Below are positions 1 to 9,233 of a stretch of 9,233 bases of DNA, in pieces. The notes beneath the pieces were generated by a model. It was given only the letters and a program-made list of their open reading frames with translations. It searched no databases and was not told where the DNA came from. Made by a program: the position numbers and the translations under genes. Source of the stretch: a virus (taxonomy: Duplodnaviria; Heunggongvirae; Uroviricota; Caudoviricetes); IMG/VR virus record IMGVR_UViG_2630968558_000007, positions 1 through 9,233 of that record; one strand, written 5' to 3'. Numbering within the stretch: the stretch's first letter is position 1; each line of letters starts with the position of its first letter.

Positions 1-60
1 ATGAGTCACCTCTGGTTGAGAGTTTACTCACTTAGTCCTGTGTCCACTATTGGTGGGTAA
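1..60 (+). CDS. 3' end of an upstream late-operon gene (partial; by position possibly a gp20-like ejection protein)
   Basis: Frame 1 is open from the window edge to TAA at 58-60 (…SPVSTIGG*), immediately upstream of the gp16-like gene. Product inferred from synteny only. Confidence 0.3.
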   Translation: MSHLWLRVYSLSPVSTIGG

Positions 61-81
61 GATCATTCAATTTACGGTGGA

Positions 82-1923
82 ATGATGAAAGTAACTGCAA
101 ACGGTAAGACATTTACCTTTCCTGATGGTACGAGCACCGAAGATATTGGCACCGCCATTGATGAGTATTTTGCTGGTCAGGCTGTTCAGCAACAAACAGT
201 TAATCAGGCCAATAATGTACCAACACGGAAAGAACCATCATTGATGCAACAAGCTGGCGATTGGCTCACTGGTGGTCAAAGTGCAGGGCAAATTGCAGAA
301 CAGGCTGGTCGTGGTCTGGTAAACATACCATTTGACGTATTGCAGGGTGGCGCAAGTCTGATTAATGCAATCAGTCAGGGGCTTGGTGGGCCAAAAGTAT
401 TGGATGATGTCTATCGTCCAGTCGATCGACCGACAGACCCTTATGCGCAAGCTGGAGAAACAATTGGCGGGTATTTAGTTCCAGGAGTTGGAACGGCAGG
501 AAGCATGGCTATTGGATCACTGGCAGAGGCCGCAAATCAGAAAGGCGATTTCGCACAAAATGCAGCCAAAAATGCCGGAGTTAACCTTGCCGCTCAGGGG
601 GTTCTTTCCGCAGCAGCAAAGGGAATAGGGCGTGGAATAACGGCTATAAAAGGTGATATTTCGCCAGAAGTGGCGAAGAAAATTGCCACATCAGAATCGA
701 TGGGCGTGACACCAATGACATCTGATGTTATCCCGCCGAAAAATGCTTTCACTCGCGGCCTTACTCAGGATGCCGAGGGGGCTTTGCTCGGGACAGGCTC
801 AAAGCGAGCGGAGCAATATGCAACGCGTAGTAAGCTGGTAAGTAATTATTTTGACCGTTTTGGTGAGTACAACCCTGATGATGTGGTGAAATCTCTGACC
901 ACCACGTTAAGGGGGCGGAAGGATGCCGCTGGCGCTGTTATCAATGACGTCACCAATAAAATGGGTAATGCCGCAGTTGATACCACAAACACTATGAATG
1001 CTCTGAATACAGCGATCGCAAGACAGGAACGGCTTGGGACGTCTGCCAATCAAAGCCTGCTTACATCCTTGCGTAACCTACGTGAAGAATTAGCAAACCC
1101 TGCAACTGATTTGGATGTTACGTTTGATCTCCTGCGTCAGCACAGAACAGCATTTAGATCTAATGTTCAGGGAGATGCTATGGTCTTCCCCAACCAGGCA
1201 AAAGCAGCTACCAATATGGTAGAGAATGCAATGTCAAAAGACCTTCGTAACGCAGTTGCAAAAAACCTCGGTGCATCAGACGCAGCAAAATACCTTAAAG
1301 CAAATTCTGATTATGCAAACGTTTATAATAAGGTGCTTAATAAAAACATTGCTAACAAACTCAACAAGGCAAGCAGTGAAGCCAGCCCTGAACTTATAAA
1401 TACCGTTGTATTAAGCAGAAAACCATCTGACGTGAAACGAATATGGAGCGCACTGGATGATAAAGGGAAAGATGCTATGCGTGCAGCTTACGTCAGCAAA
1501 ATAGCGGAAAAGGCCGGTGACTCTCCAGCCAAGTTCATCACTGAAGTTAATAAGCTGAAATCTCAGTCAGGCGGTGAAATTTACAACACTATTTTTTCTG
1601 GAAAGCACATGAAAGAGCTTGATGCTCTTCATGAAGTTCTACAGCAAACAGCAAGGTCAGACACCGCAAATGTAGTAACTCAGACGGGGCAATCACAAGC
1701 CAACAGGATAAGGACGATTGGCGCAACTGCGACTCTTGGTGTATCAATGGGGCTTGAGGCTGGCTTTGGTGCAATGATGCGTTTGTATGAGTCCAAAGCA
1801 GCAAGGAATGCTCTCTTACGTCTGGCAAACACTAAAGCTGGAACGCCAGCCTATGAAAGAGCGTTGAATACCGCTGCAAATGCCATCAGGCCGCTGCTTG
1901 CTACTGAGGCAACACAGCAGTAA
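82..1923 (+). CDS. P22 gp16-like DNA ejection (injection) protein
   Basis: 613-aa ORF; N-terminus [18 protein letters not shown] resembles my recollection of P22 gp16; size close to gp16 (about 609 aa); Ala/Gly/Gln-rich composition typical of ejection proteins; last late gene before the immI region as in P22. Start may be ATG 85 rather than 82 (GGTGG at 76-80). Confidence 0.6.
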
Positions 1924-1947
1924 CGTATGGGGAATTGGATTCAATCG

Positions 1948-2337
1948 TTAACATTTTCTTTTTACTTTTCCAACAAAGGCTTTGGTTGAATCCATATTCC
2001 CATAACCAGAAATGGTTTTCGACATTAAAACTGTTCCATTAGGATGTATTACCCATGAGTCGATAACTCGTTGAGTTTCGCCATTCGCGCCGATTCCGAT
2101 GATGGAGTTTTTAGACAATGCTTTGTAAGCCATGCCGCCCGCATCCGTCCCAGAATATGTGATACTGGCATCTTCACCGTTTGTCTTAATGATGAATGTT
2201 CCACTAAAACCATCTTCTTCCGGTTGAAAATTATTTCGTTCTGAATAGCTTATTCCGTGCATATCTCCAACGACCCAGCACTCTGCTGAGACAGAAAACG
2301 AGAAGACAAAGAAAGCCATTGCTATAATCAATTTCAT
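1948..2337 (-). CDS. hypothetical secreted protein (predicted Sec signal peptide), third gene of the mnt operon
   Basis: 129-aa ORF. N-terminus MKLIIAMAFFVFSFSVSA|EC has a hydrophobic core and an AXA-like cleavage site, with no lipobox. Mature protein has Cys near both ends (ECWVV…KVKRKC). Start lies 15 nt after the stop of the upstream ORF, same strand as mnt. Visibly AT-rich. Confidence 0.55.
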   Translation of the reverse strand: MKLIIAMAFFVFSFSVSAECWVVGDMHGISYSERNNFQPEEDGFSGTFIIKTNGEDASITYSGTDAGGMAYKALSKNSIIGIGANGETQRVIDSWVIHPNGTVLMSKTISGYGNMDSTKAFVGKVKRKC

Positions 2338-2352
2338 TTTAAGCCCTTATTG

Positions 2353-2688
2353 TTATTGATTCTTTTTGCACGGAAATGTTTTTCCTACTGCTAGGGCGGT
2401 TAGTATAACTGCATTCTCATTTCTTGATTCTGGGTTTTTGTTTAGATATTTCTCAACGATATCGGTGTATTGATACATGTCAACGCCATCAGGAGGACAT
2501 AGAGAACCAATTAGTATCAATGAGTCAGTTACTCCGCGCAAATATCCAGTAATGTAAAGCGATGAAAAATCATCACCATTTTTACCTTGTTGAATGTTGT
2601 AAAGAAGGTCATTACCCGTTTGAAGCTCGCGCAGCTCAGCACTGGAAGAAGAGACAACTGCTAACAGGAACAGTGATAGAAATCTCAT
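2353..2688 (-). CDS. hypothetical secreted protein (predicted Sec signal peptide), translationally coupled to mnt
   Basis: 111-aa ORF. N-terminus MRFLSLFLLAVVSSSSA|EL is a signal peptide. Two Cys in the mature part (SLCPPDG, FPCKK). Its ATG overlaps the mnt stop in an ATGA arrangement (plus-strand tcat at 2685-2688). Confidence 0.55.
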   Translation of the reverse strand: MRFLSLFLLAVVSSSSAELRELQTGNDLLYNIQQGKNGDDFSSLYITGYLRGVTDSLILIGSLCPPDGVDMYQYTDIVEKYLNKNPESRNENAVILTALAVGKTFPCKKNQ

Positions 2689-2939
2689 TTCAAATCCTTT
2701 TCATAAATCTTTTTAAGTGTCTCAAACACTATAGCCTTGAACTGCTCGGCCTGCTGATCAGCCAAGCGTTCAGCTTCGTCGCGATATCCTGTAATCGGTG
2801 ATGGTTTTGATAGTGCATCCTGAACGATTTGTAATAACTCAGAGTTCATTGACCTTCCGTTAGCCTCGGCTCTTAATTTCAATTTTTCTCTTACTTCCAA
2901 AGGCATACGGAAGTTAAAGTGCGGATCATCTCTAGCCAT
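2685..2939 (-). CDS. mnt: Mnt repressor (ribbon-helix-helix maintenance repressor of immI)
   Basis: 84-aa product MARDDPHFNFRMPLEVREKLKLRAEANGRSMNSELLQIVQDALSKPSPITGY… is near-identical to P22 Mnt as I recall it. SD GGAGTGA upstream on the minus strand. Divergent from arc across the Pant/Pmnt region. Confidence 0.9.
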   Translation of the reverse strand: MARDDPHFNFRMPLEVREKLKLRAEANGRSMNSELLQIVQDALSKPSPITGYRDEAERLADQQAEQFKAIVFETLKKIYEKDLK

Positions 2940-2961
2940 GCCATCACTCCAAGTTAGTGTA

Positions 2962-2990
2962 TTGACATGATAGAAGCACTCTACTATATT
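2962..2990 (+). promoter_or_regulatory. Pant-like sigma70 promoter driving arc-ant (-35 TTGACA 2962-2967, 17-bp spacer, -10 TATATT 2985-2990)
   Basis: Consensus -35 and near-consensus -10 hexamers with a 17-bp spacer, directly upstream of arc. The Arc operator lies between the hexamers, as in P22 Pant. Confidence 0.7.
2967..2987. promoter_or_regulatory. Arc operator (ATGATAGAAGCACTCTACTAT)
   Basis: 21-bp sequence with TAGA/TCTA half-sites, matching the P22 arc operator from memory; sits in the Pant spacer. Confidence 0.8.
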
Positions 2991-2995
2991 CTCAA
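2967..2995 (-). promoter_or_regulatory. Pmnt-like promoter on the minus strand (-35 TTGAGA from 2995-2990, 17-bp spacer, -10 TATCAT from 2972-2967)
   Basis: Hexamers read on the minus strand with a 17-bp spacer, upstream of the mnt start; overlaps the Arc operator and abuts the Mnt operator. Hexamer assignment is by inspection only. Confidence 0.45.
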
Positions 2996-3015
2996 TAGGT
3001 CCACCGTGGACCTAT
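2995..3015. promoter_or_regulatory. Mnt operator (perfect palindrome ATAGGTCCACCGTGGACCTAT; 17-bp core 2997-3013)
   Basis: Perfect 21-bp inverted repeat. The 17-bp core is the reverse complement of the P22 Omnt sequence AGGTCCACGGTGGACCT as I recall it. It overlaps the predicted Pant start site. Confidence 0.8.
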
Positions 3016-3029
3016 ATTGTGAGGTGAAC

Positions 3030-3191
3030 ATGAAAGGAATGAGCAAAATGCCGCAGTTCAATTTGCGGTGGCCTAAAGAAGTATTGGATTTGGTACGCAA
3101 GGTGGCGGAAGAGAATGGTCGGTCTGTTAATTCTGAGATTTATCAGCGAGTAATGGAAAGCTTTAAGAAGGAAGGGCGCATTGGTGCGTAA
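3030..3191 (+). CDS. arc: Arc repressor (ribbon-helix-helix)
   Basis: Internal ATG at 3030 gives the 53-aa product [53 protein letters not shown], essentially P22 Arc. SD GAGGTG at 3021-3026. The 74-aa track ORF from 2967 runs back across the promoter and operators and is an over-extension. Confidence 0.9.
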
Positions 3192-3259
3192 AGTTGAAGC
3201 CCCAACTGCTGGAACAGTCAGGGCTTCGGTATCAACAAAACTTACGAGGTATTATTGAT

Positions 3260-4150
3260 ATGTCAAGCTTAGCAAAGTCAACTGTAAATTGCACTAATAG
3301 CATCATCATTTCTGACGTCAAGATTCATATGGATTCAGAGGGGCGTTACTCGCTTAATGACCTTCATGTAGCGTCTGGGAAGGAGGAAAAACATCAGCCA
3401 GCTTTCTTCATGCGTAGAAATGAAACTATTGAATTGATTAATGAAATTTTTAATTCTGCGGATATGCAGAATAAGAATCCCGTCCTTTCTAAGAAAGGTC
3501 GATATGGTGGAACCTACGTGTGCAAGGAGCTTGTTTACTCCTACGCCATGTGGATTAGTGCATCCTTTGCGCTGAAGGTTATCCGTGCATATGACGCAAT
3601 GGTTACTGCCACACAAGATAGGAAGGCTATTGGAGGTAAAACTTCAGTAGCTGAACGCACACCGCTACGAGATGCAGTAAACATGCTGGTAGGAAAGAAA
3701 GGACTTCGCTATGACGATGCATACAATATGGTTCATCAGCGTTTTGGTATTGACAGCATTGATGAACTTTCAATTGAACAAATCCCGCAAGCTGTAGAGT
3801 ACATCCACAGGGTGGTGCTTGAAGGTGAGTTCATCGGCAAACAAGAGAGGAAAGTCAACGAGCTTTCTGCAAAAGAAGCAAACAGCCTTGTATGGTTATG
3901 GGATTATGCCAACCGCTCACAGGCATTATTCCGCAAACTGTATCCGGCGCTGAAACAAATTCAATCGAACTATTCCGGCAGATGCTACGACTATGGTCAT
4001 GAGTTCTCGTATGTTATCGGAATGGCAAGAGACGTTTTAATAAACCACACACGAGATGTTGATATCAATGAGCCAGACGGACCAACGAATCTTTCCGCAT
4101 GGATGAGACTTAAGAATAAAGAATTACCTCCTTCAGTACATAACTACTGA
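3260..4150 (+). CDS. ant: antirepressor-like protein with N-terminal KilA-N domain (Ant position of immI)
   Basis: Position after arc as in P22. KilA-N-type motifs [13 protein letters not shown] and [25 protein letters not shown]. Preferred start is ATG 3260 (SD GAGGT at 3246-3250), giving 297 aa; the track ORF begins at TTG 3194, 2 nt after the arc stop and with no SD. Confidence 0.65.
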
Positions 4151-4169
4151 CAGATAACCAACGCAACGA

Positions 4170-4192
4170 CCCAGCTTCGGCTGGGTTTTTTT
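4170..4192 (+). terminator. Rho-independent terminator after ant (stem CCCAGC / GCTGGG, loop TTCG, then a 7-T run)
   Basis: Perfect 6-bp GC-rich stem at 4170-4175 and 4180-4185 with a 4-nt loop, followed directly by T7 at 4186-4192, about 20 nt after the ant stop. Confidence 0.7.
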
Positions 4193-4250
4193 ATGCCCAA
4201 AATTCACCGTAGCCATGCTGCGGCGATTCCTTGTATCTGGAGCAAATTAA

Positions 4251-6173
4251 ATGACAGACATTACAGCCAATGTGATTGTATCGATGCCTTCGCAACTCTT
4301 CACTATGGCACGTTCTTTTAAAGCCGTAGCCAATGGCAAAATTTATATAGGAAAAATTGACACTGACCCGGTAAATCCTGAAAACCAGATTCAGGTTTAT
4401 GTGGAGAATGAGGATGGTTCTCACGTTCCTGTTTCACAACCAATCATCATTAACGCTGCTGGATATCCGGTATATAACGGACAGATTGCCAAGTTCGTAA
4501 CTGTGCAAGGCCACTCTATGGCTGTTTATGATGCATATGGTGCGCAGCAGTTCTATTTTCCTAATGTGCTGAAGTACGACCCGGATCAGTTAAGGCAGCA
4601 GATTGAAGACCCTGATGGGGCAACCAAATATCCCGCATTGCAGATTTCTCGCTGGCGTGATGATTTAGACGTGCGTGGATGGGGAGTATTCCCGGATGGT
4701 ACAGATGTTACTGCTAAACTGTGTGAGGCATTGGATTATGCTAACGGTGATTATTCACAATTAGTTGAGTATGGGAAAAACAGAAAATCATTGCATATCC
4801 CTCCAGGCGATTATGTCGTTGATATGACCAAGCTGACTGGCATTCATGCTTCTGCTGGTCGCTTTGTGATCCGCTGTAACGTTGATTGTGTTGGCCGAAT
4901 CCCTAACGGGGATTTCCTAATCCTTCATAGTAAATCTATAAATGTAACTGGCCTTTCATGTAAATCGTTATACATTAGAGGGCTACAGTTTTCTATTATC
5001 TCGAACATTGATACGACCGGCGATATAAGATTTTTTTCATCAGACGCATACACTCTGCCTGGGTTGGTTGTATGGGGTGGCGGGAGTTATTGGAATCATT
5101 TTGTACGCATCAAAACAGGTACTGCGGCAGGTGGTGGCAGATTCATAATTGACATCTCTGATGGATCTATAAATCAAAATACATTTGAGCAGCTTTGCGG
5201 TGGTGGTCTGATCATAACTGGATCAGGTTTTAGTCGCCAGACCGGTGCTCCGTATGAGGGGAACGCAAACACATTTATAGGTCTTGACACATCGGGAAGC
5301 GGCGATTATTTGCTCTATAACAATAGCACCCCAAATCAGCATAATGTTGTGATAGGTTTGTATGGCGAGGTTACGGGCAATGGGAAAATACGTGGGCCGT
5401 GGACCATACTTGGCGCGCGTGCGCAATTTGGGGGCTGGGCCTCAACCATGAGCCCCATGAATACCATATTAGGGACAGACCCTACAGCAGGCTCACAGGG
5501 AGGAGAGACGTTCAGTGTCTCCGGTTCTAATCTTTGCCCTTCTGGAGATTGGTCGGTTATTGAAGGAGTCTACGGAGCACCGATTGACTTTTCCCTTTTA
5601 ACTATACCGAACGAACGAAAGGTTGGTTCTGACCCTAATGAACCATCTGGCTGCGGTAGATGGTTTGGAGTCACTAACGCATCTCAACGTTGCAGAATAA
5701 CCCTAAATTTAACTAAAACACAGTCAGGTTTCATTCGTGGAGCTTTTTACTTTAAAGGCGACACACCGCTTGAGATAGCTATAGAAGCTCAAGATGGTAC
5801 TAATACCATCTATATGCCAGTTAATATGTTCTACGATATGGGTGTTGGAGGGTGGAAGTTATACAAAGTTTCAGCGCCAACCAACGACAAAAGTAAAGCA
5901 TACAGATTAAGGATTACAGTTGAATCCGGAATGAGCGCTTATGTTGGAGGAGCGTATTTTAGCCAGTATAACGGAACCTTTCTTCCAGTATTCTGCGGAT
6001 GGGAGAAAGTAAAAATGAGATCTAGCGTAAAGCCTACTGTGACAGAGAACACAGGTTCTTTCCCAATCGGCTTGGTGTCCTACAGAACATCTCCAGCAAC
6101 ATATCCTTCCGACCCTACTGTCCAATGGGTGTGGAATGGAAGTACATGGGGGATTGTGAATATTTCTGCCTAA
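4251..6173 (+). CDS. tailspike protein (P22 gp9 / Sf6-type head-binding domain fused to a divergent receptor-binding domain)
   Basis: First ~113 aa ([50 protein letters not shown]…NVLKYDPDQ) are near-identical to the Sf6/HK620/P22 tailspike head-binding domain as recalled. The remaining ~525 aa are Gly/Ser/Thr/Asn-rich and consistent with a beta-helix receptor-binding domain. SD GGAG at 4239-4242. Confidence 0.9.
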
Positions 6174-6178
6174 CCAAT

Positions 6179-6203
6179 AGCGGCATGCTTCAAACATGCC
6201 GCT
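6179..6203. terminator. hairpin between convergent tailspike and acyltransferase genes (possible bidirectional terminator)
   Basis: Perfect 9-bp stem AGCGGCATG / CATGCCGCT with a 7-nt loop, 6 nt after the tailspike stop and just before the acyltransferase stop. No strong U-tract on either strand, so terminator function is uncertain. Confidence 0.35.
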
Positions 6204-6209
6204 TCAAAA

Positions 6210-7307
6210 TTATCTTGGAATATTTTTCTCGATATATTTATAGCTTAGTAGTGCAAAAGCTACAGATGTTATAAATACAATAAAAATAAACGAGAAGCTT
6301 TTTGATAAATCAGCCATCCCAAGCCAATCTATCATCTTAAAGCATAATATAAACGTAATTGGATGAACTAAATACAAAGAGTATGAAGCATCACCAATCA
6401 TGATGAAAATACGTGGTATTTTGATGTTGTCTTGTATGTAGTCAGAGCATGCAGTAAAGCATGCAAACATTATGCAAAAATATTTCCCTGAATGAAAAAT
6501 CCCATGCCCAGCATCAAACTGTGTTATGTAAGCCCATACAGGGATTATGATTCCAATCGAAATTAATGGTATTGCAATCCTTTTGTCTCTAATTGAAAAG
6601 TTACCACTTTTGTATAGGATAGCAATAATCGCACCGAAGACAAACTCCCAAATCAGGCTTTGCATGGTTAAATTTATATATCCTAAACCTTCAATTTTTG
6701 GTCTGTCGAATACACCCGCAATAGATGGCAAAGCTAACAGTGTAATGAAAAACCATAATATATAAAATGTATACCTAAACTTCCCCAGCGCTATTCCAAT
6801 GGCGCAAACTAAATAAAAATATATTTCATAATTGAGGGTCCATCCAACGAACAATGATGGAGGCCCAAAGTATATAGGTGACTCAGTGTTTAGTGGAATG
6901 AAAAGCAAACCTTTGATTATGTTTGTTAATTCAAATGAGCTAGATGATTGGTTATATGAAAACCCATGCATTAAAGATAAATCAACATTTTTAACAATGA
7001 CTATATATGCAATAGTCATGATGAAATATAGAGGCCAAACTCTTAAGAAACGTTTTTTAATAAACTTTATCAAATCATTGCTTTGGTAGCTATGAGACGT
7101 ATAAATTATGATAAAACCACTAATGATGAAAAATAAATCAACTCCGAATGCACCAGGCCAAAATAATCGCTGAGCCAGCCATTCATATTCTGTTCCTTTC
7201 AAAAAATCCCTTGCATGGCAAAGTACGACAAGCATAGCTGCAATAGCCCTAAGCGCCTGTATATACTGAAGGTTATTCTTTCTTGGTGGACTGTTATCGA
7301 TTTCCAA
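6210..7307 (-). CDS. acyltransferase-3 family integral membrane protein (O-antigen acetyltransferase, Oac-like serotype-conversion candidate)
   Basis: 365-aa polytopic hydrophobic protein with acyltransferase-3 signatures: N-terminal LRAIAAMLVVLCH, FGVDLFFIISGF, C-terminal SYSLYLVHP. Sits between tailspike and integrase where Sf6 carries oac. Visibly AT-rich. Apparent TTG start at 7307 with AGGTG 4 nt upstream. Confidence 0.8.
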   Translation of the reverse strand: MEIDNSPPRKNNLQYIQALRAIAAMLVVLCHARDFLKGTEYEWLAQRLFWPGAFGVDLFFIISGFIIIYTSHSYQSNDLIKFIKKRFLRVWPLYFIMTIAYIVIVKNVDLSLMHGFSYNQSSSSFELTNIIKGLLFIPLNTESPIYFGPPSLFVGWTLNYEIYFYLVCAIGIALGKFRYTFYILWFFITLLALPSIAGVFDRPKIEGLGYINLTMQSLIWEFVFGAIIAILYKSGNFSIRDKRIAIPLISIGIIIPVWAYITQFDAGHGIFHSGKYFCIMFACFTACSDYIQDNIKIPRIFIMIGDASYSLYLVHPITFILCFKMIDWLGMADLSKSFSFIFIVFITSVAFALLSYKYIEKNIPR

Positions 7308-7405
7308 AATACACCTATAATAGTTTTTTGATAAGTATCAGTAGCTTCTGAAAGGTCTGAAGTTTAGCACCACAAACGCTATTGATCGACACCGCCGATC
7401 AGTAA

Positions 7406-7425
7406 TACTGTATTAATATACAGTA
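7406..7425. promoter_or_regulatory. LexA (SOS) box TACTGTATTAATATACAGTA
   Basis: Perfect 20-bp palindrome fitting the E. coli LexA consensus CTGT-N8-ACAG; 17 nt upstream of the umuD'-like start codon, with SD GGAGGTGA at 7432-7439. Confidence 0.8.
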
Positions 7426-7442
7426 TCCATCGGAGGTGAGTT

Positions 7443-7829
7443 ATGGGATTCCCGAGTCCAGCACAAGACTACGTTGAAGAGCGCATATCGCTCGACAAGT
7501 GCATCATAAGCAGGCCAGCGGCAACGTACTTCATGCGAGCGGGTGCGACGCACTACCGGGAAGGTATCCTGAATGGCGCGCTGCTGGTTGTGGATGCTTC
7601 GCTATCACCATGCGACGGCTCATTACTTGTTTGCAGAATGGAAGGTGAGCTGAGGATTAAGCGATACCGCAAATCACCCAAGGTTCACCTGGAAGATTTG
7701 CAGACAGGAAGAAGGGAGGCTATACCTCTGCACGATGACGGAACGAGCCCTGATGCGATATTTGGCGTAATCACCTACATCATCAACGATGCGCGGACGG
7801 GTGAGTTTGATGATTGCCCGGTGATGTGA
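7443..7829 (+). CDS. UmuD'-like protein (S24 LexA/UmuD-family C-terminal domain, N-terminally pre-truncated, predicted non-catalytic)
   Basis: 128 aa. MGFPSPAQDYVEERISLD…ATYF… aligns with E. coli UmuD from Gly25 onward (UmuD: C|GFPSPAADYVEQRIDLN…SATYF). The UmuD GDSM catalytic-Ser motif is replaced by ATHY; the Lys-containing region is retained (ELRIKRY vs EFTVKKL). Strong SD, LexA box upstream, no umuC-like gene in the window. Confidence 0.8.
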   Translation: MGFPSPAQDYVEERISLDKCIISRPAATYFMRAGATHYREGILNGALLVVDASLSPCDGSLLVCRMEGELRIKRYRKSPKVHLEDLQTGRREAIPLHDDGTSPDAIFGVITYIINDARTGEFDDCPVM

Positions 7830-7899
7830 GACAGAAATGAGACACAAAAAGCTTTGCACTGAATTGCAAGGCTTAGTGCTGTCAGAGATATAGCGTTGG

Positions 7900-9057
7900 T
7901 TAGCCCACCTTTTCATCAAGCCAATCCGCCCACCACTGCATCATCTCCCTGCGCTTATCGAGATACTGAGCATGGTTGTAAATTCCACGCACAGATCCGC
8001 CATTGGCATGTGCCAGTTGCACTTCAATAGCATCAGCAGGCCATTCGTGCTCGTTCATAATCGTACTGAATTCATGCCTGAATCCGTGACCGCTTTCCAG
8101 ACCCTCATAGCCGATTTGTTTGATCACAAGTAATACCGCGTTCTCGCAGATTGGCTTCTTCTTATCATTACGCCCGGCAAAAACAAACTCTGATACTGGT
8201 TTGGTGATGGAGCTTAACGTAGTGAGAAGTTCAACCACTTGGTCCGACATCGGGACCACATGAATCTTGCGTCCCTTCATCACACTGGCGTCGATAGTGA
8301 TAATCCTGTTTTCAAAATCGACGTTCTTCCATAGCATAGAACGAAGCTCTTTCGTTCTTAGGGCTGTGTAGCGTAAAACTTTGGTCGCAATGAGCGATAC
8401 GATACTTCCTGAAAATGTTGCCAGTGCTTTGTTGAATGTCGGGATCTGGTCTGCAGGAAGAAACGGGAAGTTCTTCTTGCGGTATCCCTTCATGGCGTCA
8501 GCAAGATCAGGTGCCGGGTTATATTTAGCCCTTCCGGTGACAATAGCGTAACGGAAAACCTCGCCGCATCTTCTGCGTGCTTTGTTGGCTCGTTCCATTG
8601 CACCGCGATCTTCAAACCTGCGGATTACTTCAAGAAGTTGCATCGGCTCAATATCCTGAATTTCAAGACCGCCGATGATGGGTAAAATGTCGTCATCAAA
8701 CATTTTGGCAAGTTCAGTCGTATACCCTACAGACCAGACTTGCTTCTTGTGCTCGTACCATTCCTTGTAAATGGCGCTAAAGGAATTGTTGTTAGACGAA
8801 GCCTTTTTCGCCTTTACCGGATCGATGCCAACCGAGATGTCTTTCCTCGCAGTCCATGCTTTATCCCTTGCCTCTTGCAAAGTCATAAGCGGATATTTTC
8901 CGACGGTCAGGATTTTCTCCTTACCGTCAATCTTGTAGCGAAGCTGCCATACCTTTTTCCCTGACACAGGGACATAAAGGTACAGGCCATTACCATCGAG
9001 AAGGCGGTATGGTTTTTCTTTCGGCTTTGCTGCTTCAATCTGCTTAACGGTGAGCAT
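7900..9057 (-). CDS. int: P4-type tyrosine integrase (IntS-like, tRNA-Arg-associated)
   Basis: Product from ATG 9057 is 385 aa, MLTVKQIEAAKPKEKPYRLLDGNGLYLYVPVSGKKVWQLRY… (P4-type N-terminal arm-binding domain), with C-terminal catalytic motifs HGFRHEF and RGIYNHAQY. The track ORF extends to GTG 9093, a less likely start. Adjacent to a tRNA-Arg 3' end, like E. coli K-12 intS next to argW. Confidence 0.9.
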   Translation of the reverse strand: MLTVKQIEAAKPKEKPYRLLDGNGLYLYVPVSGKKVWQLRYKIDGKEKILTVGKYPLMTLQEARDKAWTARKDISVGIDPVKAKKASSNNNSFSAIYKEWYEHKKQVWSVGYTTELAKMFDDDILPIIGGLEIQDIEPMQLLEVIRRFEDRGAMERANKARRRCGEVFRYAIVTGRAKYNPAPDLADAMKGYRKKNFPFLPADQIPTFNKALATFSGSIVSLIATKVLRYTALRTKELRSMLWKNVDFENRIITIDASVMKGRKIHVVPMSDQVVELLTTLSSITKPVSEFVFAGRNDKKKPICENAVLLVIKQIGYEGLESGHGFRHEFSTIMNEHEWPADAIEVQLAHANGGSVRGIYNHAQYLDKRREMMQWWADWLDEKVG

Positions 9058-9218
9058 GGGTAAAAATCCGGTGGGTAAAATTATTTTATCCACTTTTTAC
9101 CCGTCATGGAGTGCGGCTGTCAACGATCTGACGCGAACCATTACGAACTGTGAATCTACGGAAGGCTTGATATTCAGGGGATTTTGCGGACTGGTACGGA
9201 TGGGAGCGAACTGATAAA

Positions 9219-9233
9219 TGGTGTCCCCTGCAG
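9219..9233 (-). tRNA. argW: 3' terminal segment of tRNA-Arg (argW-like), cut by the window edge; attachment-site core or end of the intact tRNA gene
   Basis: Reverse complement of 9219-9233 is CTGCAGGGGACACCA, matching the 3' end (…TTCGATTCCTGCAGGGGACACCA) of E. coli tRNA-Arg(CCU) argW as I recall it. Same orientation as int and about 160 bp upstream of its start. Only 15 nt are visible. Confidence 0.5.

Follow-up and report, generated by a model that had tools for sequence, protein, structure and literature searches.

The genes between the DNA ejection gene 16 and the repressor gene mnt of a P22-like prophage, the subject of this work, encode relatives of two described systems. Rap1a of Serratia marcescens and Tai4 of Agrobacterium tumefaciens confer immunity to the Tae4-family DL-endopeptidases Ssp1 and Tae4. 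Rap1a carries a Sec signal of about 25 residues and forms an all-helical dimer with a C78-C122 disulfide, and as a dimer it blocks the active site of Ssp1, a type VI secretion system (T6SS) DL-endopeptidase, in a tight steric block of an NlpC/P60 amidase (PMC3852654). Rap2a and the enterobacterial Tai4 have a different fold from Rap1a (PMC3852654). The second system is Hex of phage 434, whose gene is co-transcribed with cI from PRM and owes its name to the fact that Salmonella lysogens carrying lambda-imm434 exclude P22 (PMC3564112). We compared these systems with a DNA stretch of 9,233 nucleotides, positions 1 to 9,233 of IMG/VR virus record IMGVR_UViG_2630968558_000007 (Caudoviricetes), referred to as the window, which represents the right end of a P22-like E. 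coli prophage.

A sequence-only reading of the window had pointed to two open reading frames (ORFs), here ORF111 and ORF129, in the slot where P22 carries sieA. This placement was confirmed. In the P22 annotation the order is gene 16, sieA, orf59a, mnt, and ORF111 and ORF129 likewise sit between gene 16 and mnt. The slot and its borders comprise the following genes:

1948..2337, minus strand: ORF129, 129 amino acids, Hex family (phrog_2651), predicted secreted beta-barrel protein
2353..2688, minus strand: ORF111, 111 amino acids, orphan Rap1a/Tai-family T6SS amidase immunity protein
2685..2939, minus strand: mnt, 84 amino acids, Arc/Mnt-family maintenance repressor
82..1923, plus strand: gene for a gene 16-type DNA ejection protein, which converges on ORF129 and bounds the slot on the right

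We found that ORF111 belongs to the Rap1a/Tai family and that ORF129, on sequence comparison, is a full-length homolog of 434 Hex. We consider it probable that the two genes and mnt form a lysogen-expressed module driven by Pmnt, in which ORF111 provides periplasmic T6SS immunity and ORF129 Hex-family exclusion, functions that we infer. Transcription would start at Pmnt, which is active while Mnt holds Pant shut, and would run through mnt, ORF111 and ORF129. On the sequence, translation of ORF111 is coupled to that of mnt through an ATGA overlap, and ORF129 has its own ribosome-binding site. Judging from their signal peptides and paired cysteines, both products would be exported by Sec, cut by signal peptidase I and disulfide-bonded in the periplasm. 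By analogy with Rap1a, ORF111 would neutralise Ssp1/Tae4-type peptidoglycan DL-endopeptidases injected by the T6SS of competitors, and as an orphan immunity protein it would protect the lysogen from its neighbours. Our prediction for ORF129 is a small soluble barrel of eight strands, held closed by a disulfide that joins the N- to the C-terminus. Hex genetics, and these only, make periplasmic superinfection exclusion its most likely role, for example by interfering with the trans-periplasmic DNA-delivery conduit of P22-like phages. More broadly, and more tentatively, the repressor-coupled cassette of P22-like phages of Enterobacterales may represent lysogenic conversion to T6SS immunity, paired with a periplasmic exclusion protein of the Hex family.

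Each of the described systems resembles the locus in part. ORF111 shares with Rap1a and Tai4 the PF18602 domain, a Sec signal and a small helical fold, and its cysteines C64 and C107 lie 43 residues apart, against 44 for C78 and C122 of Rap1a, at the same distance from the C-terminus (PMC3852654). In contrast to these proteins, with which it shares about 25% identity, ORF111 is encoded outside a T6SS cluster and is coupled translationally to a prophage repressor. ORF129 resembles 434 Hex, and also Sf6 gp38, in having a signal peptide followed by a CW start, a C-terminal cysteine and a position downstream of a lysogeny repressor. Unlike hex, it occupies the immI slot beside gene 16 and not the site behind cI, and a Rap1a gene separates it from the repressor. 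P22 sieA has the same position and orientation as the two ORFs and is expressed in the prophage (PMC10883804). SieA, however, is an inner-membrane protein of 164 amino acids with its own promoter past t_mnt, whereas ORF111 and ORF129, which have no sequence similarity to it, are both predicted to reside in the periplasm as soluble proteins. The orphan immunity islet SAIDI-1 of Salmonella Typhi (PMC7400221) is likewise effector-less, horizontally acquired and predicted to protect from neighbours' weapons. It differs in being a chromosomal islet; here a single gene (two in Serratia fonticola) is temperate-phage cargo wired into the lysogeny-maintenance operon. The prophage-borne T6SS auxiliary toxin/immunity clusters of Ralstonia (PMC11481896) are complete, with vgrG, toxin and immunity genes, whereas here the immunity gene stands alone.

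Neither ORF111 nor ORF129 is a new kind of protein, and the Rap1a annotation is already public. We found no description of an orphan Rap1a/Tai gene borne by a temperate phage in the literature, the coverage of which was incomplete, so that this negative amounts to no more than absence of evidence. A conserved link between the lysogeny-maintenance operon of P22-like phages and an orphan T6SS immunity gene, paired there with a Hex-family gene, appears not to have been described in the literature that could be searched. Should ORF111 neutralise an amidase injected into the host, the prophage would pay that host with protection from contact-dependent killing, and this protection would be expressed from the promoter that also keeps the antirepressor silent. 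Such an arrangement would tie phage lysogeny directly to interbacterial warfare in the gut. A T6SS-immunity cassette with a periplasmic Hex would also mean that the published cytoplasmic, RecA-related mechanism of 434 Hex needs revision.

Family assignment of ORF111 and ORF129

ORF111 matched the Pfam profile PF18602 (E 1.2e-14, 55 bits against a cutoff of 27.7), with residues 24-107 aligned to positions 1-90 of the 90-position model. Its relatives have a precomputed PF18602 assignment, and RefSeq names ORF111 itself a "Rap1a/Tai family immunity protein". The earlier proposal of an immunity-type protein thus gains a specific family from the Pfam profile and from Foldseek. The AlphaFold2 model of ORF111 has four helices, with a predicted local distance difference test score (pLDDT) of 73.6. 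In a Foldseek search of the PDB, the top five matches were all Tai4 or Rap1a, free or amidase-bound (probability 0.85-0.99, template-modelling score 0.46-0.59). This lends modest strength to a predicted small all-helical fold like that of Rap1a (3zfi) and Tai4 (6ije). The sole PDB sequence match was a weak one to A. tumefaciens Tai4 in which both cysteines were aligned, and a profile of the ORF111 clade gave no gain over the single sequence in the PDB search. Scans of ORF111 and ORF129 against NCBIfam and PADLOC gave no match.

We called signal peptides heuristically, from a 10-residue Kyte-Doolittle window, the number of K/R residues and the residues at positions -3 and -1. The N-termini of ORF111 and ORF129 span 17-18 residues with one K/R, a hydrophobic core of about 3.0 (-0.08 for mnt) and a cleavage motif with Ala at -1 and Ser or Val at -3. 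The predicted signal peptide comprises residues 1-17 in ORF111 (MRFLSLFLLAVVSSSSA, then E; 2638-2688) and residues 1-18 in ORF129 (2284-2337). Signal peptides had been proposed for both proteins, and the tripartite pattern was indeed present in the two ORFs, in all 31 ORF129 relatives and in all 7 ORF111 relatives, though the signal sequences differ. Neither ORF111 nor ORF129 has a hydrophobic segment beyond the signal peptide. As also noted from the sequence, each mature protein contains two cysteines, C64 and C107 in ORF111 and C20 and C129 in ORF129. C64 and C107 are invariant in the ORF111 clade and are predicted to form a disulfide pair. Since this cysteine spacing is that of Rap1a, ORF111 should act on effectors like Ssp1 or A. 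tumefaciens Tae4, and not necessarily on Salmonella Tae4. No Tae4/Ssp1 effector gene was found beside ORF111 in the window or in any related locus. ORF111 is therefore an orphan immunity gene, and its PF18602 membership is unaffected.

Distant relatives of ORF111, 30-35% identical, occur in the unrelated phages DSL-LC04 and Dartukuta. The relative in the lake-water phage DSL-LC04 (L110:2932-3258) is annotated as Tai4 and lies among early genes. The relative in Bacillus phage Dartukuta (MW749009.1, 56662-56883) has a Gram-positive host, for which a T6SS immunity role makes little sense.

ORF129 aligned with 434 Hex over its entire length by BLASTP (residues 1-129 on 1-132, 29% identity, E 1e-14), and both proteins matched phrog_2651 (2.3e-60 for ORF129 and 1.4e-58 for Hex). 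This puts the exclusion candidate of the sequence-only reading into a family with a genetically defined exclusion function (PMC3564112). Translated searches found further relatives, about 29% identical, beside the repressor genes of 434, Sf6 (gp38), HK633, HK446 and Sf101. Counted from mnt, ORF129 is the third gene on the same strand; its relatives directly follow 434 cI, the Sf6 repressor gene or other Arc- and cI-type repressor genes, and some are oriented opposite to cI. The cysteines proposed to lie near both termini of ORF129 do so, C20 being residue 2 of the predicted mature protein and C129 the last residue, and they are predicted to pair. Nearly all of the 31 Hex-family sequences contain exactly two mature cysteines, at position 2 and at the C-terminus. 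The ORF129 model is an eight-stranded beta-barrel of high confidence (pLDDT 90).

Other searches with ORF129 were less informative. Pfam gave no match for ORF129 or for 30 relatives, a PDB sequence search returned chance-level matches only (BMP receptor, CdiA), and a genome-collection scan with a shallower ORF129 alignment returned one locus. Neither a profile nor a specific structural match to the lysozyme inhibitors PliC/MliC or Ivy was found. We rejected SieA homology for the two ORFs, as BLASTP of the ORFs from all fetched loci against P22 SieA matched P22 alone. A Cor/Llp-type lipoprotein was rejected as well: there is no lipobox, ORF129 reading SVSA-E-CW with Glu before the Cys, and ORF111 has no Cys near the cleavage site. 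A few distant ORF129 relatives (for example ..SIAS-CW) have lipobox-like sequences. In NZ_CP104117.1 (L001:8049-8363), RefSeq calls the ORF129 ortholog as 104 amino acids from an internal Met. Called in this way, the protein lacks a signal peptide that every relative retains, and the call is therefore probably a start-site misannotation.

Transcription and translation of the cassette

The product of mnt matched the Pfam families Arc (3.7e-28) and Repressor_Mnt (1.3e-11). Upstream of it and within ORF111 we located the following elements:

2967..2995, minus strand: Pmnt (TTGAGA, 17-nt spacer, TATCAT; 10 of 12 matches in the promoter scan), the presumed start of the mnt-ORF111-ORF129 transcript
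2962..2990, plus strand: Pant (TTGACA, 17-nt spacer, TATATT; 11 of 12 in the scan), divergent from and overlapping Pmnt
about 2967-2987: Arc operator, within the Pant region
2997..3013: Mnt operator, AGGTCCACCGTGGACCT, in which the central base alone differs from P22
2456..2483, minus strand: promoter-like site inside ORF111 (TTGACA, 16-nt spacer, TATCGT; 10 of 12 matches, consensus scan only)

In an alignment with P22, the stretch that holds Pant, Pmnt and the operators is identical except for that one base at the centre of the Mnt operator. The Pmnt/Pant region of P22 is annotated as experimentally defined, and the promoter sequence of the window is identical to it.

Both junctions of the cassette were as the sequence-only reading described them. 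Positions 2685-2688 (tcat; ATGA on the minus strand) are shared by the mnt stop and the ORF111 start, and ORF129 begins 15 nt past ORF111 (gap 2338-2352). Shine-Dalgarno-like AAGGA and AAGGG motifs lie 6-7 nt ahead of the ORF111 and ORF129 starts, respectively, and the ribosome-binding site of ORF111 falls inside the last mnt codons. No terminator-like site was found on the minus strand between mnt, ORF111 and ORF129, and no convincing intrinsic terminator after ORF129. On that strand a single terminator-like site was seen (1852..1835), within gene 16, and its T tract is weak. P22 differs in this respect, having a t_mnt terminator and a separate PsieA promoter between mnt and sieA (P22 annotation). 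The overlap, the short spacer with its ribosome-binding site, the lack of a terminator and the P22-like promoter support co-transcription from Pmnt as it had been claimed, and the transcript itself is what we infer from them. For comparison, co-transcription of the 434 cI-hex pair was shown by reverse-transcription PCR (PMC3564112), and stop and start of these two genes likewise overlap by ATGA.

The end of mnt itself carries a mark of the cassette. Near-identity of the window to P22 DNA begins only at 2713, and about eight codons at the end of mnt differ from P22. These last codons, as judged from the alignment, belong to the Rap1a cassette, and the C-terminal motif ..Y(E/G)KDxK is common to other Rap1a-linked repressors. 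The mnt/ORF111 junction is kept in five of six diverged lineages. Even a repressor that is only 36% identical to Mnt of the window shares the ..MYGKDxK end, an AAGGAT ribosome-binding site and the ATGA overlap. With these three elements conserved, the cassette brings along the means of coupling to whatever repressor gene precedes it.

The promoter-like site inside ORF111 is one of 5 such sites in the region, compared with 3.1 +/- 1.9 in shuffled sequences, a number not above chance. In five other lineages the same ORF111 codons read TTGATA, a 16-nt spacer and TATAGT, with ATA as the Ile codon. ATA is a rare codon in E. coli. The site might be a secondary promoter for ORF129 or a by-product of the conserved GVDM..DIV codons.

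Competing explanations

Several observations weigh against a Pmnt-driven module of T6SS immunity and periplasmic exclusion. The similarity of ORF111 to the Tai4 and Rap1a structures in the PDB is weak (E about 0.1 by sequence, 0.18-0.6 by Foldseek), and its model reaches only the pLDDT given above. Immunity in the Rap1a/Tai family is highly specific (PMC3852654), and protection by ORF111 against any given attacker is therefore not predictable. The identity of ORF129 to Hex is only 29%, and its fold search gave nothing more specific than generic barrels. The sole biochemical study of Hex assigns it a cytoplasmic role, in which it blocks RecA-stimulated cleavage of the repressor (PMC3564112). 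Regarding expression, the promoter-like site inside ORF111 could uncouple ORF129 from Pmnt. In P22, mnt transcription stops at t_mnt before sieA, so that Pmnt-driven expression of the slot is not a general rule.

These points lead to other ways of reading the locus. The three genes may not be one operon, with ORF111, ORF129 or both expressed from promoters of their own, independently of Mnt and of the lysogenic state. P22 sieA has its own promoter, ORF129-type genes stand alone in many prophages with variable neighbours, and the site inside ORF111 reaches 10 of 12 matches here and reads TTGATA/TATAGT in other lineages. For ORF111, however, this explanation does not apply, as its start overlaps the mnt stop and its ribosome-binding site lies inside mnt in five of six lineages. 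For ORF129, promoter-like sites are no more numerous than chance allows, and the hexamers coincide with strongly conserved codons. We regard separate promoters as unlikely, and an operon that is driven by Pmnt and protects the lysogen as the most likely arrangement. A different target for ORF111 can also be imagined: it may have been recruited for phage warfare and inhibit a peptidoglycan hydrolase of superinfecting phages, not a T6SS effector. This would fit a Rap1a clade that is found in P22-like prophages only, the Tai4-like genes in unrelated phages and the lytic transglycosylase domain on some of the neighbouring gp16-type ejection proteins. However, inhibition of the Rap1a type is a steric block of an NlpC/P60 amidase (PMC3852654), and no such enzyme was seen among the phage genes of these loci. 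The SLT domain has an unrelated fold, and no test here pointed to a phage target. We consider a phage target highly improbable, and the least probable of the explanations weighed here, and favour T6SS effectors as the targets of ORF111.

ORF129 also has two other readings. One is that it is a second immunity-type protein, directed against a further toxin that acts in the periplasm, be it a T6SS effector, a bacteriocin or a lysozyme, which would make the slot a small acquired array of interbacterial defence genes. This appears rather less likely still than separate promoters, as about a dozen independent contexts of its relatives, all of them phage immunity regions, contain no neighbouring toxin or T6SS gene. 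ORF129 has no Pfam, NCBIfam or PADLOC match, PhiA ranked below many unrelated barrels, and the sole member of the family whose phenotype is known is one that excludes a phage (PMC3564112). The other reading follows the published account of Hex and holds that ORF129 is cytoplasmic, binds the prophage repressor, damps its RecA-stimulated autocleavage and so stabilises lysogeny. Deletion of hex is reported to raise spontaneous induction about 30-fold, in recA+ cells only, and sHex, a fragment of 61 residues, to block the cleavage that RecA stimulates in the 434 and P22 repressors in vitro (PMC3564112). In addition, ORF129 is a full-length Hex homolog, and members of the family repeatedly adjoin repressor genes. 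Yet all 31 of 31 sequences have canonical Sec signal peptides, nearly all have the N-/C-terminal cysteine pair, and the model, a confident one, shows a closed barrel for which 61 residues would not suffice. The N-terminus of sHex, Glu43 in the 158-amino-acid reading, is the first residue past the predicted signal peptidase cleavage ANS/ECW. The lethality of full-length overexpression (PMC3564112) fits a secreted protein that jams export, the deletion phenotype could reflect a polar effect on the cI message, and several phages carry the gene in the orientation opposite to that of cI. A cytoplasmic ORF129 is thus improbable in our view, more so than a second immunity protein.

These data suggest secretion of Hex, which conflicts with the cytoplasmic mechanism published for it. 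The Sec signals, the position of Glu43 at the cleavage site and the toxicity of the full-length protein lead us to favour a putative periplasmic exclusion role over the cytoplasmic RecA model. Secretion of the Hex family would be concrete grounds for a fresh look at the way in which 434 Hex excludes P22 and at the cause of the lysogen instability that follows its deletion. The published 158-amino-acid Hex frame begins 24 codons upstream of the conserved start of the family (phage 434 hex, L002:2429-2905).

Distribution of the cassette and neighbouring genes

The ORF111 clade (62-98% identity) was found only in P22-like prophages, where in every diverged relative looked up the gene directly follows a repressor gene of the Arc/Mnt type. 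Its hosts are Escherichia, Citrobacter and Serratia, and members also occur on IMG/VR viral contigs. Diverged P22-like prophages of Escherichia and Citrobacter repeat the gene order repressor, Rap1a, Hex-like. In Citrobacter it continues into gp16, with the same order in further assemblies, and in a Serratia sp. the repressor gene is followed by Rap1a. A Serratia fonticola prophage carries a second Rap1a gene (L006:8356-8715), of 119 amino acids and 21% identical to ORF111, in the Hex-like position. On sequence evidence, this is a two-gene orphan immunity array behind mnt.

In a set of 80 viral contigs with close relatives of ORF129, alleles at least 98% identical always lay directly downstream of mnt-Rap1a. 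Alleles about 88% identical (phage Emek type) occurred without Rap1a, either beside gene 16 behind variable cargo or behind other repressors. More distant relatives follow an Arc-type repressor gene beside gene 16 or lie in immC regions. No toxin gene was found beside ORF129 relatives, which occur only in phage immunity regions (immI or immC). Among 5426 complete E. coli genomes, 26 contained the Rap1a gene and 147 a Hex-like gene, and all copies were chromosomal. The cassette is rare but recurrent. The ratio of nonsynonymous to synonymous substitution rates (dN/dS) was 0.11-0.14 for ORF111 and 0.14-0.40 for ORF129, in comparisons with dS below about 1, which indicates that both genes are under purifying selection.

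A copy of the cassette, 99.5% identical over a 1.1-kb query, was found in an E. coli chromosome, in a prophage that abuts the tRNA-Arg gene beside yfdC. RefSeq names the product of the gene 16-type gene in this genome a 'P22-gp16 family phage DNA ejection protein', and the relative position of the gene is unchanged in all related loci. From position 82 on, the window contains the gene 16-type gene, ORF129, ORF111, mnt, Pmnt/Pant, arc, sar and then the antirepressor gene. Two of these elements have yet to be listed:

3030-3191, plus strand: arc
3192-3258, minus strand: sar antisense RNA, in the arc-ant interval (Rfam RF00262, 66 bits, gathering score 43)

With sar present, the immI region is complete. 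Past the antirepressor gene come the genes for a tailspike, with the P22 head-binding domain, and for an acyltransferase, followed by an S24-peptidase ORF and the integrase gene. In the S24 ORF the Peptidase_S24 match begins at the first residue, and hence no separate DNA-binding domain was detected (UmuD-like).

The ORF111/ORF129 region had been described as visibly AT-rich compared with its neighbours. We observed a real dip, to 39.8% GC against 47.0% in gene 16, 43.0% in arc-ant and 43.7% in the whole window. The dip is modest, though, and within the window it is the acyltransferase gene, at 33.6% GC, that stands out strongly as AT-rich. This gene (6210-7307, minus strand; Acyl_transf_3, Pfam 1.1e-28) lies between the tailspike and integrase genes and probably encodes an O-antigen acetyltransferase, prophage cargo for serotype conversion. 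Between it and the integrase gene, the S24-peptidase ORF, of 128 amino acids (7443-7829, plus strand), has a GC content of 53%, well above that of its neighbours.

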